A stretch of 8,336 nucleotides of DNA from a virus (taxonomy: Duplodnaviria; Heunggongvirae; Uroviricota; Caudoviricetes): IMG/VR virus record IMGVR_UViG_2778261169_000006. The stretch is one strand, 5' to 3'. The position numbers are program-made. Shown here one piece after another: positions 3,001 to 6,000 of this stretch (its first letter is position 1; every line of letters begins with the position of its first letter).

Positions 3001-6000
3001 AGCGAAGGTCTTGCAGGAATGCTTAACAATAACTTTTTCTTTTGAGGAGTAAAATATGGGCCGCGCCAATCCTTTATATGGAGCTAATTTTACAGATTCA
3101 AGAATGCCTATTTTTTATCCGTACCCTGGGTTAACTGATGGGTCTCTTGGGTTGCTGGATGCTTATGAAGTGGATGAAAATTTTAATTTATCAGCGACAG
3201 GTACTGATATATCGACAACGCCAAATTTAGCCGCGATTCCAGCCGCCACTTTAACTGGCGTATCGCAGGCTGATTTGGCCTTTAAGTATTCAAACACACT
3301 TGGTAGCACTGAAGTTAAGTTTGAGAGAACACCAAAGCTTGGTATTCATGGCATAGTCTCTCAGGTCAATCAGGTATCTGGCCACCTGGCCCGGTTCCGC
3401 TGCCCTGGCATCCTGCCGTACGTTGTTGCACATCAGAATGATCATCAGTTCGCAGTGTTTGTGCATCATCGTATTACTCGAGATAAGCCGTCATCGACGA
3501 ACCAGAACCCTGTAGAAGTGTTGATGTCGCATAACTCAGCTCCATCTAATAATAAGTTGCTGATTGCCAGTCTGGATGGAGGGTTGACGGGTAATCCAGC
3601 CCTGAAATCTCAAGCGTCAGCAAAAACAGGCACAGATATGGCTGTCGCAACTGCCTACTACGACCATATGGTTTGGGGGTCACCTAGCGGTTTCGGTACG
3701 CTACTGAACAATTTGTGTCGTTCATACGTCCTTTACAGATGGCATTTTATCGATCTCACTGCAGCAGGTATGACCATGGCAGAGGCCACGGCGTCTGAAC
3801 AGGATATCTTTAACAGGCGATTCAGTTCAGGCGGGAAGTACTATGGCGACACGATCCCAACAAATCCGTCTACCTTTCCGTAGCAGCTATTGATCTGCCT
3901 TTAAAGTGCAACCGCTGTATATAAAAACAGTATATGGGAGGGCAGATCATGCTTCGACAGTCAGACATCGCCGCGGCTTTCCGCGAGTCGGTATTGCGCA
4001 ACTCCAAAGGTTTTCAGTACCTGCACACAAAGGATTTTGTGTCAGCGCTGCGCCGGCGTGGGCTGCACTTTACCGACTCAGAGGCTAATGCGTGGATATC
4101 AAGAGAGCAGACGTACTTTGTCGACAAAACCACCGACCATAGCGAAAACCGTTTGTGGATGCTGGCGAACATGGGGAGGGTTTTGTAATGGGCTTTCCTT
4201 CACCGGCGTCTGACTACGTTGAACAGCGTCTGTCCGTTAACTCGATCTGCAATGTCGGCCCTAACACCCGCGTTTTCGAAAGGGATGGCGGTTATGTTGT
4301 GCTGGATATCTCCCTGAAGCCAAAGCAGGGTAGTCAGGTTCTTATCCAGCACGGCGGCGGGACGGAACTTGCCACGTTGAGAGGGCGGTCGCTGATAACC
4401 GAAGATGGCGAAGCGATCGAGGGCGAAGCCCTGGACGATGTTACTGTCATCGGGGTCGTGACATTTACTATCTGCGATGTTCGTTCTGATAATTCTATTA
4501 TTTAATTGGGGTATATATGGCGCTGAAGCTATTAGCCAATAATAACGCAAAGAGTGTGCTCGCTGCGGGTATTAGCGCGTCCGCTACCGTTATTACCGTG
4601 GGTACTGGAGCGGGGTCTTTATTCCCTTCCCCTGTATCTGGGCAGAGTTATTTCAAATTAACGATAACCGACGCGGCCACGAAAACAATTTCTGAAATTA
4701 TGCACGTAACGTCTGTATCCGGTGACGTGATGACAGTAATTCGTGGTCAGGAAGGAACTACGGCACGCGTATGGTCAACGAATGACATTGTCGCGAATTT
4801 AATGACCGCCGGATCATTGTTATCTTTCCTGCAGATCAGCAATAACCTGTCAGAAATTAAAGATGCCGGTGAGGATGCGATAAATGAAGCCCGTTATAAC
4901 CTCGGAATATCTGATTCCTCTGGTTTTGTCGGGCGTTCACTTGGCGCTCCAAAAGCTTTCTATGCAAACGGAACCTATACGCGATCTCCTCTGGCCCGTT
5001 ATGCAAAAGTAACGTTGACCGGTGCCGGTGGCGGCGGTGGCGGCTGCCAGGCCTCCAACAATACAGAAACCTTCTCCGGTGCTGGCGGCGGCGCGGGCGC
5101 GACCATTATCGTATGGGTTGACCTGTCTGCTGCCAGTTCTGATGACTACCCGCTGAAGTGAAAATTGTGTTGTGTACCAAATTGCGTACCAAACTAAAAT
5201 CACAAATCATGAAACCTTGGTTCATGGCGGTTCTCAGGGGTGTTGCTGAACCGTGTTGATACATCAACTGCACCTGATATTGAGTGGCCGGAAGAACCAG
5301 ACACAATGTAAGCGAAAAAGAAAAACCGCAGACACGACGTATGCAGGACGTGCTGCGGTTGGCTGGTGAACTTTCGATAGTGCGAGTATTGAATGATTTC
5401 CAGCCGTTACCGATTTTACGTGTTTATTAGTGAACAAACCACTCGTCAGCAGACTCCCAGGTATCTTTCAGAGTCTCCTGAACAAATGTTTTTGCAGAAT
5501 CTTTATCTGCGGTGCGTGTAACAGAAAGCCCATCGTTGCTGGTGGCTTTTACGATCACCTCTACATCGTCATAACGTTTACTGATGCGTCGGGTTAATTC
5601 TTCCTTTAACGCATCCACAGCACCGTTTGGCATTTTAGTCATTTTTTCTTTGGCTATGCAGATCTCAATACGCATAAAAGTCCCTCTATACTGTGTTTGT
5701 ATACAGTATTATTTTTAACTGTATGGATAAACAGTGTCAAGAGGTCTTATTTCTGCTCCTTTGGAGCTCTTCAAAACGATTATGTAAAGATTTCGGATAC
5801 AGTTCGGTATATACCTGCCATAGCACGTTTAATGAACGATGCCCTGTAACCTGAGCGACTTCCTCAATACTAAAACCAGCCTCAAATAAGCGACTTGCCC
5901 CTTCTCTACGCAAATCATGGTATCGCAGATCTTTAATACCTAATTTGCTTCTTACCCTCTGAAATCCTGCAGTAACAGAAGTGCTGTTATATGGAAAAAT

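Follow-up and report, generated by a model that had tools for sequence, protein, structure and literature searches.

The stretch of DNA analyzed here (hereafter the window, 8,336 nucleotides of the tailed-phage record IMGVR_UViG_2778261169_000006) opens inside a side tail fibre gene; base 31 is not the start of the fibre ORF. Directly behind the fibre gene lies a gene encoding a protein of 275 aa (ORF275). The following features were assigned:

1-3045, + strand: side tail fibre gene, cut at its 5′ end by the window (PF08400; homology to KB57_051 and PIN2_0034)
2143-3045, + strand: predicted SGNH-type acetyl-esterase head at the fibre C-terminus (invariant columns, profile matches)
3044-3049, + strand: Shine-Dalgarno-like GAGGAG, 6 nt before the ATG and overlapping the fibre stop (direct sequence reading)
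3056-3883, + strand: ORF275, a predicted stand-alone ConA/LamG-like jelly-roll protein and member of phrog_18370 (profile and predicted fold)
3056-3139, + strand: ORF275 N-terminal arm, residues 1-28, putative docking segment (conservation)
3485-3715, + strand: ORF275 hypervariable stretch, residues 144-220, putative specificity face (alignment)
5243-5311, + strand: Tfa C-terminal remnant, a pseudogene fragment outside the module (sequence LLNRVDTSTAPDIEWPEEPDTM*)

ORF275 was confirmed as a real open reading frame with an ATG start. The strong Shine-Dalgarno sequence that had been predicted for it was also found, with GAGGAG overlapping the fibre stop codon TGA (3043-3045), and the proposed gap of 10 nt between the fibre stop and ORF275 was borne out. 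The original prediction had further ascribed to ORF275 and the esterase module a shared AT-rich composition. This was roughly true, but the contrast was modest; ORF275 has a G+C fraction of 0.472 and the esterase module (2131-3045) one of 0.455, compared with 0.55-0.56 for the N-terminal and middle parts of the fibre. Neither promoter-like nor terminator-like sites were seen between the fibre gene and ORF275 or just after ORF275. Downstream of ORF275, the prophage carries moron-like genes, namely an 84-aa ORF, a UmuD-like gene, and DinI.

From its N-terminus, which is of the lambda-Stf type (PF08400), the fibre runs through three tandem ~60-aa repeats and a shaft to the esterase head at its C-terminal end. 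Over residues 245-1004 it shares 54-55% identity with PIN2_0034 and with KB57_051, the latter in its entirety. Within the head, block I was read as GDS with S731 (nt 2221-2223), block II as containing G757, block III as GQNN with N790, and block V as DRTH with D966/H969 (nt 2926-2937); all of these positions were nearly invariant columns over 59 homologous heads and in alignment A6. When the head sequence of the window was searched alone, no Pfam or PDB match was obtained. The A6 subfamily profile of the head reached SGNH chains in the PDB (PAF-AH, GDSL-like) at E 0.003, and comparison of the head with classical GDSL-type phage heads by hhalign gave a probability of 96.7%; the classical heads themselves match GDSL models and structures. 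Pfam Lipase_GDSL_2 or Lipase_GDSL was matched by 29 of the 59 homologous heads. The S/G/N/H positions, the profile match to SGNH structures, and the hhalign result together support the earlier placement of an esterase on the fibre.

Fibres of this kind have been studied in Klebsiella prophages, in work of which part was accessible to us. There, SGNH-esterase fibres are reported to be among the commonest Klebsiella prophage receptor-binding proteins and to predict capsule type (PMC13123978); deacetylation of surface polysaccharide has been reported for their heads. Two such fibres, produced recombinantly, were active esterases, the accessible part mentioning no co-produced partner, and when the same two fibres were tested alone, none of 118 reference K-types revealed depolymerase activity (PMC13123978).

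ORF275 had been described as an orphan, a label that proved to be wrong. It gave a full-length match to phrog_18370 (E 7.6e-61; residues 7-275 to profile positions 7-298 of 298), 53 close relatives were found, mostly in Klebsiella pneumoniae, and an exhaustive profile search (cut-off E≤1e-3) yielded 817 clusters (clustered at 50% identity) from phages and prophages whose hosts are Proteobacteria or Actinobacteria, nearly all of them 265-335 aa in length. ORF275 carries all of the family motifs, i.e. the N-terminal G..L.G..FTD..LP...GSL.L.D, ERT.K.G.H, and the C-terminal GG(K/R)(F/Y)YGDT..T.P. Values of dN/dS were 0.05-0.08 when pairs of 85-87% identity, in which dS was saturated, were left out, indicating strong purifying selection. 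No match to ORF275 was obtained in Pfam, NCBIfam, or the PDB by phmmer, and the PDB was also negative with a 43-sequence profile. The lack of a Pfam match extended to Laminin_G_3 and CAZy-type families, and sequence models thus did not place ORF275 in the ConA-like superfamily. The ORF275 sequence contains no hydrophobic N-terminal signal and no glycine-rich motifs of the gp38 PGII-sandwich type. In the literature searched, we found no description of the family or its two-gene module and no virion proteomics for phages that carry it (KB57, KpS8/Seu621, and ReqiPoco6/Pepy6 included). ORF275 is a member of a large, uncharacterised phage family.

The structure predicted for ORF275 is a two-sheet ConA/LamG-like jelly-roll β-sandwich, which is the fold of that superfamily, and the structures that it matches best are binding modules with no catalytic function; by structure prediction, ORF275 is a protein of concanavalin-A-like lectin fold. 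No secondary structure is predicted for the conserved N-terminal arm (residues 1-28; G..L.G..FTD..LP...), whose first ~20 residues show lower pLDDT and are absent from the fused forms described below. Whereas the arm, core, and C-terminus are conserved, residues 144-220 form an indel-rich, hypervariable stretch of ~75 residues, where the commonest residue has a mean frequency of 0.30 (compared with 0.5-0.66 in conserved segments). The polar residues E90, K94, H98, R142, Y227, D233, and D265 are nearly invariant from phages of Actinobacteria to those of Klebsiella, and most of them persist even in fused forms lacking an SGNH partner. Given that these residues are invariant across hosts, they are not explained by a purely host-specific adhesin; the cluster could have a structural role, bind Ca2+, or be catalytic.

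The same domain is also found in cis. It forms the C-terminus of BNR_4 plus fn3 (sialidase-like) tail proteins, such as P0176, the minor tail proteins of Gordonia phages Utz and Mutzi, and Nordenberg gp19, and in L076 it is fused to a tail-tube-like plus beta-helix-like protein. Phage ReqiPoco6 encodes an SGNH protein (gp003) and a family member (gp004) in trans, together with gp006, in which SGNH and Laminin_G_3 are joined in cis. From sequence comparison, this distribution suggests a modularity like that of carbohydrate-binding modules (CBMs).

Related loci were gathered with sub-alignments of the ORF275 family. Of 95 distinct viral loci, most had the family gene within ~15 nt of, or overlapping, an ORF for a tail protein of 500-1250 aa, and this upstream ORF carried the GDS motif and a terminal SGNH block V, D..H...G........GW. 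When the search was instead made with an esterase-head profile, a family gene was located directly downstream in 40 of the 44 loci that had at least 500 nt of DNA behind the head. The other four had a gene of similar size (~270-480 aa) in that place; one of these partners, at locus L140, gave Laminin_G_3 at ~1e-5, below the gathering score, as did the partner at L139, itself a weak family match (E 3e-10). The position is also kept in the strictly lytic phages KB57 (a Klebsiella Mydovirus), PIN2, and ReqiPoco6 (Rhodococcus); ORF275 is 52% identical to KB57_050, and fibre residues 245-1004 are 54% identical to KB57_051.

Co-variation of ORF275 with the fibre C-terminal module, which the original prediction had proposed as a test, was checked across genomes and was positive. 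Identity within the family correlated with identity of the C-terminal 280 aa of the upstream protein (Pearson r 0.86, Mantel p 0.0005), and still did so among pairs of less than 60% identity (r 0.56). For the N-terminal 200 aa of the upstream protein, by comparison, r was 0.08 among such divergent pairs. The divergence of ORF275 tracks the esterase head and not the fibre N-terminus, and it is with the head only that ORF275 is co-inherited, although linkage alone can suffice to produce co-variation of neighbouring genes.

Of the three roles considered previously (a fibre chaperone, a distal tip or adhesin subunit, or unrelated cargo), the distal subunit is favoured. Given its lectin fold and its position behind an esterase-ended fibre, ORF275 is most likely a detachable, sugar-binding tip subunit of that fibre. 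More fully, we give roughly even chances to the reading that ORF275 is the trans-encoded, lectin-like distal subunit of a deacetylating side fibre, the two genes constituting a receptor-recognition cassette. Both genes would be carried on one late transcript, and ORF275 would be translated right behind the fibre from the coupled ribosome-binding site. The conserved arm of ~25 residues, which is present only in the stand-alone proteins, would dock non-covalently on the esterase head, and ORF275 would remain on the virion. Its variable face may bind a host capsule or O-antigen glycan; ORF275 would thereby hold the fibre on the polysaccharide, present O-acetyl groups to the esterase, and add to host specificity.

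A bolder form of this proposal is tentative, and we hold it to be appreciably less probable. It takes the pair to be a previously unrecognised, phylum-spanning two-component module, in which a lectin-fold subunit would plug by its N-terminal arm onto an SGNH esterase head and supply the glycan specificity. Host range would then be set by the small partner, not by the esterase, and a second catalytic site, acting on the deacetylated polymer, could even reside in the invariant E/K/H/R/Y/D cluster.

A different explanation, which we regard as unlikely, is that ORF275 is a dedicated assembly chaperone. In this role it would bind the esterase head only transiently, helping the fibre to fold, trimerise, or mature; it would stand in for the decayed Tfa, and the virion would lack it or retain it only loosely. 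The Tfa C-terminus previously noted downstream of ORF275 is indeed present; it is a remnant of a canonical Tfa C-terminus behind in-frame stops, E. coli copies of it are annotated 'tail fiber assembly protein, incomplete', and it indicates that an older stf-tfa end has been displaced. ORF275 occupies the Tfa position directly downstream of the fibre gene, with translational coupling, and no tfa gene follows the esterase fibres of KB57, PIN2, or ReqiPoco6. Strict pairing with one class of fibre C-terminus would also fit a chaperone, co-variation with the C-terminus being typical of Tfa and gp38 as well. It also counts against a distal subunit that ORF275 sits exactly in place of the decayed Tfa, where a replacement chaperone would look alike.

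However, ORF275 does not resemble the known chaperone family. Membership of a Tfa-like family was rejected on sequence (no match in Pfam, Caudo_TAP included, or in NCBIfam) and on fold, and an intramolecular chaperone of the S74 type was rejected as well, since neither ORF275 nor the fibre had a Pfam match to a Peptidase_S74/ICA domain. Tfa proteins are ~175-200 aa, and ORF275, at 275 aa, is longer. We know of no precedent for a lectin jelly-roll fold among fibre chaperones, and other tail proteins, even a tail-tube-like one, carry the domain permanently at their C-terminus. Moreover, SGNH-ended fibres that are homologous or similar are produced with no partner; the recombinant Klebsiella fibres were active (as far as the accessible part of PMC13123978 relates), and epsilon15, with its tailspike gp20, has no partner gene. 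A chaperone is thus not generally needed for such heads. It is the ConA-like fold, the cis-fused C-terminal domains of other carbohydrate-active tail proteins, and the hypervariable stretch of 75 residues that favour a distal subunit over a Tfa-like chaperone.

It is distinctly improbable that ORF275 is instead an independent small tail spike, mounted by its arm on the baseplate or on another fibre, and thus a receptor-binding protein in its own right whose co-inheritance is incidental. Conservation of the arm would agree with such a role, and fLi-Aba02 gp22, a ConA-like protein encoded beside an esterase fibre, has been treated as a second tail fibre (PMC11058221). Nevertheless, the baseplates differ among the lambdoid siphophages, Vequintavirinae myophages, PIN2, and actinophages concerned, the esterase head being the only constant neighbour, and the divergence of ORF275 does not follow the anchor at the fibre N-terminus.

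The near invariance of the seven polar residues across very different hosts would be accounted for if ORF275 were a second virion enzyme, that is, a catalytic ConA-like protein (a polysaccharide lyase or glycosidase of the PL7, PL20, GH16, or GH131 type) acting on the polysaccharide once the esterase has removed its acetyl groups. We judge this very improbable. The best structural matches are binding modules without catalytic activity, no CAZy-type Pfam family was matched, and the domain is appended, as CBMs are, to proteins that already possess a catalytic-type module (BNR, beta-helix). The lack of depolymerase activity of the two Klebsiella SGNH fibres on 118 K-types also counts against a second enzyme, although that result (PMC13123978) does not bear on the partner.

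The cargo option, by which ORF275 would be an unrelated moron (e.g. a lysogenic-conversion or exclusion factor) lying behind the fibre by chance, finds some encouragement in the moron-like genes that follow but has next to no probability and was rejected, because the co-variation was positive and the same position is kept in virulent phages, and ORF275 furthermore lacks a promoter-like or terminator-like site of its own and has a gap of only 10 nt, no hydrophobic N-terminal signal in its sequence, and relatives fused into tail proteins elsewhere.

If a lectin-fold partner does ride on the esterase head, then host-range prediction, capsule GWAS, and the use of recombinant enzymes would have to treat the two genes as one unit; in the accessible part of PMC13123978, the fibre is considered alone. 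Fibre swapping for engineering would likewise move the esterase head and its partner together, as nature does. In addition, a testable annotation would become available for ~800 'hypothetical protein' clusters in phages of Proteobacteria and Actinobacteria, and one more family resembling carbohydrate-binding modules would be recognised.

Among known systems, the Klebsiella prophage SGNH tail fibres of Otwinowska et al. (PLoS Biol 2026) are of the same kind and from the same host genus, and no mention of a downstream 275-aa gene was found in the part of PMC13123978 accessible to us. A layout like that of the window occurs in Acinetobacter phages fLi-Aba02/03, where the esterase fibre gp21 is followed after 2 nt by gp22, a ConA-like protein of 259 aa, and then by lysis genes, as in PIN2. 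The esterase of gp21, unlike that of the window fibre, is of the SASA type, lies in the middle of the protein, and is followed by SWM repeats. Homology of fLi-Aba02 gp22 to ORF275 was not supported (hhalign probability 0.1%), and the same was true when PEAT2 gp55 was tested; in both cases the layout is analogous only. The two fLi-Aba02 proteins were treated as separate fibres and no conserved module was described; besides fLi-Aba02/03, we found no other published mention of an esterase fibre paired with a ConA-like protein (PMC11058221).

The C-terminal domain of the tailspike gp20 of Salmonella phage epsilon15 (PDB 9SIM/9SIJ) is homologous to the paired esterase heads (E ~1e-30 to profile A9) and ends, as do the heads paired with ORF275, in a ...KGW motif. 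In contrast to the ORF275 loci, a terminator follows directly after gp20 and there is no partner gene, and no chain in the epsilon15 tailspike PDB entries matched the ORF275-family profile. A partner is thus not a universal requirement of such a head.

Like ORF275, gp38 of T2/T6/S16 and Tfa of Mu/lambda are encoded directly behind the fibre gene and co-vary with the fibre C-terminus, and their products act on or sit at the C-terminal tip. They show no sequence match to ORF275 and differ from it in size and fold: gp38 adhesins are glycine-rich PGII sandwiches and Tfa is an alpha/beta domain plus a helix, whereas ORF275 is predicted to be a 275-aa ConA-like jelly roll. BppA of Tuc2009 is an accessory carbohydrate-binding baseplate protein of the BppU-BppA-BppL tripod; it binds BppU in the lactococcal baseplate, not an esterase head, and has no sequence relation to ORF275.

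The joining of an acetyl-esterase to a jelly-roll or receptor-binding module is shared with proteins that contain both in one chain. Examples are ReqiPoco6 gp006 (SGNH plus Laminin_G_3) and phi24B NanS-p (an esterase plus a lectin-like domain), and in Possum gp66 a receptor-binding domain is reported to follow the SGNH domain (PMC9569702). ORF275 has no detectable sequence similarity to the Laminin_G_3 of the cis-fused proteins, and at the locus described here the two parts are made as distinct chains by neighbouring genes whose translation is coupled, with the partner carrying a conserved N-terminal arm of its own.

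Downstream of the side tail fibre gene (1-3045, plus strand), a 275-aa ORF (ORF275, 3056-3883, plus strand) was confirmed in the sequence, 10 nt from the fibre gene and with a Shine-Dalgarno-like GAGGAG overlapping the fibre TGA. The AT-rich composition that the original prediction had assigned to both ORF275 and the esterase module held roughly, though the difference is modest (GC of 0.472 and 0.455, respectively, compared with about 0.55 in other parts of the fibre). No promoter-like or terminator-like sites were detected between the fibre gene and ORF275, or after them. Close variants of ORF275 gave a dN of 0.008 and a dS of 0.10-0.15; these values (dN/dS 0.05-0.08) mark ORF275 as a real gene on which purifying selection acts.

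The window comprises the right end of a prophage of lambdoid type, which is integrated beside dusA. The gene order is fibre, ORF275, an 84-aa ORF, a UmuD/HumD-like gene, a glycine-rich fibre-like ORF, and a remnant of the tail fibre assembly gene (tfa), with DinI, integrase, and dusA lying distally; SOS-related genes (3934-4505 and 5427-5675) separate the fibre module from the integrase.

Features of the window
~763-1230, three tandem repeats in the fibre shaft, ~57-67 aa each (DPVxxRMSxxTxxDGxVFIPLLQ...)
3934-4505, 84-aa phrog_3893 ORF overlapping a 116-aa UmuD/HumD-like S24 peptidase
4517-5311 stretch, holding a fibre-like ORF, truncated and glycine-rich (214 aa; match to PF21722 below threshold), and after it the Tfa remnant
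5243-5311, Tfa C-terminal remnant behind in-frame stops
5427-5675, minus strand, DinI homologue
5737-7960 region, tyrosine integrase (minus strand) and dusA, with 88 nt between the integrase end and the dusA start

The integrase-dusA arrangement (5737-7960) is that of integrative elements which target dusA. The fibre-like ORF and Tfa remnant (4517-5311) appear to be left from an earlier fibre/tfa end that the esterase cassette and inserted genes displaced. In the E. coli copy, a 65-aa 'recombinase family protein' fragment adjoins the Tfa remnant, a hint that a fibre segment was once invertible here. The fibre gene is cut by the window start (its reading frame is already open at base 1, with the ATG at 31 coding for an internal Met); the copy in E. 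coli CREC-629 encodes 1056 aa. RefSeq annotates only the first 445 nt of that copy, labelling them a pseudogene 'missing C-terminus', so that ~2.7 kb of the intact ORF carry no annotation. Klebsiella pneumoniae accounts for most near-identical copies of ORF275; among 5426 complete E. coli genomes, 4 have one. Decayed copies were also seen: one in E. coli (NZ_CM136177.1, 4084197-4084888) is unannotated and lacks the first 136 nt, and another (locus L014, 6114-6827) is a 237-aa truncation downstream of a broken fibre gene.

Searches of Pfam, NCBIfam, and PDB sequences with ORF275 gave no match. Its description as an orphan was nevertheless overturned: PHROG 18370 (function unknown) matches it end to end (E 7.6e-61), and 817 clusters (E<=1e-3) were recovered when 1.84 billion representative proteins were searched exhaustively with a profile, almost all being stand-alone proteins of 265-335 aa. 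In PHROG 36751, a 'minor tail protein' of 1057 aa, ORF275 matches the C-terminal 240 residues. Members share an N-terminal arm (G..L.G..FTD..LP...GSL.L.D), ERT.KGG.H, and a C-terminal GG(R/K)(F/Y)YGDT..T.P; the arm, core strands, and C-terminus are conserved, and residues 144-220 are hypervariable and indel-rich. Gly is nearly invariant as second residue in stand-alone members (MG.., or M(S/T/A/P)G..; window 3056-3064), which suggests a functional constraint on the extreme N-terminus itself. Members were found in isolated Klebsiella phages (Mydovirus phages, including KB57_050 at 52% identity, and PIN2), in actinophages (Rhodococcus ReqiPoco6 and ReqiPepy6, several Gordonia phages), and in prophages of Arthrobacter, Burkholderia, Pseudomonas, Caulobacter, Sphingomonas, and Propionibacteriaceae. 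In Gordonia phage BirthdayBoy (3045-5412 of its locus), a fibre-like gp4 and the family member gp5 lie between portal and head genes, an unusual site for tail-fibre genes.

Judged by conserved columns and by profile and alignment matches, the fibre ends in a predicted SGNH esterase head, one that a Pfam search of the window fibre protein did not recognise. Among 59 homologous-position C-termini, the SGNH signature (D730-S731, G757, G788/N790, and D966/H969 in the window fibre) formed the only nearly invariant columns, and 29 of the 59 heads matched Lipase_GDSL_2. A profile of the window-type subfamily matched PAF-acetylhydrolase and GDSL-like structures (E 0.003) and aligned with the classical group at a probability of 96.7%; the classical group in turn matched the C-terminal domain recently solved for the epsilon15 tailspike (PDB 9SIM/9SIJ, about 1e-30). 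Acetyl-esterase activity has been demonstrated for two other Klebsiella prophage SGNH fibres (PMC13123978).

Pairing of the family gene with such heads was seen from both sides, in loci from pattern-seeded scans whose counts are no unbiased census. Of 95 distinct viral loci, most have the family gene overlapping, or no more than about 15 nt from, the end of an ORF of 500-1250 aa that contains a GDS motif and finishes in SGNH block V; the same pairing was seen in 5 of the 6 genome loci having an upstream frame. Conversely, among 44 loci retrieved with the head profile and having at least 500 nt of downstream DNA, the family gene was immediately downstream in 40, and a similarly sized gene (about 270-480 aa) was present in the other four. 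One of these four (L140) matches Laminin_G_3 below threshold, as does L139, a weak family match. The pairing is not universal among SGNH-ended spikes, as no partner gene follows epsilon15 gp20 or one Taipeivirus fibre. In epsilon15 (L155, 1122-4377), the C-terminal ~275 residues of gp20 are homologous to the heads studied, the block-I motif is GHS rather than GDS, and a terminator directly follows the gene.

From residue 245 to its end, the window fibre shares 54-55% identity with PIN2_0034 and with KB57_051 over its whole length, the first shaft repeat marking the start of the common cassette (GC of the repeats low, 0.44), and ORF275 is 52% and 50% identical to the genes downstream of these two. 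It follows that the two-gene cassette has travelled between a lambdoid prophage, a myophage of 143 kb, and a phage of 59 kb. In 89 locus pairs, the identity of the partners correlated with that of the last 280 aa of the upstream protein (Pearson r 0.86, Mantel p 0.0005), in keeping with the co-variation originally proposed as a test. For pairs below 60% identity, r was 0.56 with the C-terminal 280 aa, whereas it was 0.08 with the N-terminal 200 aa. Part of the co-variation could be explained by linkage alone; the contrast inside one gene nevertheless shows that head and partner are moved as a unit by recombination.

An AlphaFold2 model of ORF275 (43-sequence alignment; pLDDT 93.5, pTM 0.90) predicted a jelly roll of two sheets plus a helix at the C-terminus; residues 1-28 lack secondary structure, the first ~20 being of lower confidence. 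Structural matches, which define the fold class only, included clostridial neurotoxin Hc, trypanosomal and Vibrio sialidase lectin domains, the PilC lectin module, CBM4, CBM22, CBM29, Tuc2009 BppA, the NanS-p lectin-like domain, and the cyanopodophage Pan3 tailspike gp15 (269 aa); ConA-fold catalytic proteins (GH131, glucuronan lyase, heparinase I) ranked lower. A first model had given the same likenesses. Against viral models, Foldseek returned a 904-aa protein containing the domain, then proteins named ConA-like lectin/glucanase. The domain also occurs in cis, C-terminally, on BNR_4 (sialidase-like) and fn3 tail proteins (P0176; the 'minor tail proteins' of Gordonia Utz and Mutzi; Nordenberg gp19, annotated 'glycoside hydrolase'), and in locus L076 on a tail-tube-like N-terminus with a beta-helix-like middle. 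Fused copies begin at about profile position 20-29 and thus lack the arm of the stand-alone proteins. ReqiPoco6 encodes gp003 (SGNH) and gp004 (family member) in trans, and gp006 joins SGNH and Laminin_G_3 in one chain. The family domain behaves like a carbohydrate-binding module.

Among the roles originally offered for ORF275, we therefore favour a distal subunit, with confidence about evenly balanced: a trans-encoded lectin-fold protein docked on the esterase head, forming the distal glycan-binding part of the fibre. ORF275 would dock through its N-terminal arm, would be present in the virion, and would bind glycan. A dedicated chaperone is unlikely; ORF275 occupies the Tfa slot and Tfa has decayed in this prophage, but the jelly-roll fold, the permanent cis-fused forms, and the making of similar heads without a partner speak against it. 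That ORF275 is an independent small spike is improbable, and that it is a second enzyme slightly more so; the enzyme reading rests on an unexplained, near-invariant polar cluster (E90, K94, H98, R142, Y227, D233, D265), most of which is kept even in fused forms. Unrelated cargo, the last of the original options, was rejected as very improbable.

SGNH esterase fibres (G7C gp63.1, Possum gp66, Klebsiella prophage fibres), lectin/CBM modules on phage receptor-binding proteins, and trans-acting tip proteins (gp38, Tfa, BppA) are already known. The closest published case comes from Acinetobacter phages fLi-Aba02/03, where an esterase fibre adjoins a ConA-like protein; that protein has no detectable homology to the ORF275 family, and the pair was not presented as a conserved module (PMC11058221). 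Pectobacterium phage PEAT2 (L157, 1881-5158) and fLi-Aba02 (L168, 6912-9556) share an analogous layout, in which an esterase-ended or esterase-bearing tail protein has directly after it a protein of 259-274 aa, annotated ConA-like in fLi-Aba02; neither of these downstream proteins is detectably homologous to the ORF275 family. Esterase fibres and jelly-roll proteins may have become paired on more than one occasion. Our literature search found no published account of the ORF275 family itself, and ORF275 with its esterase fibre is a widespread, unannotated two-gene module made of known part types.
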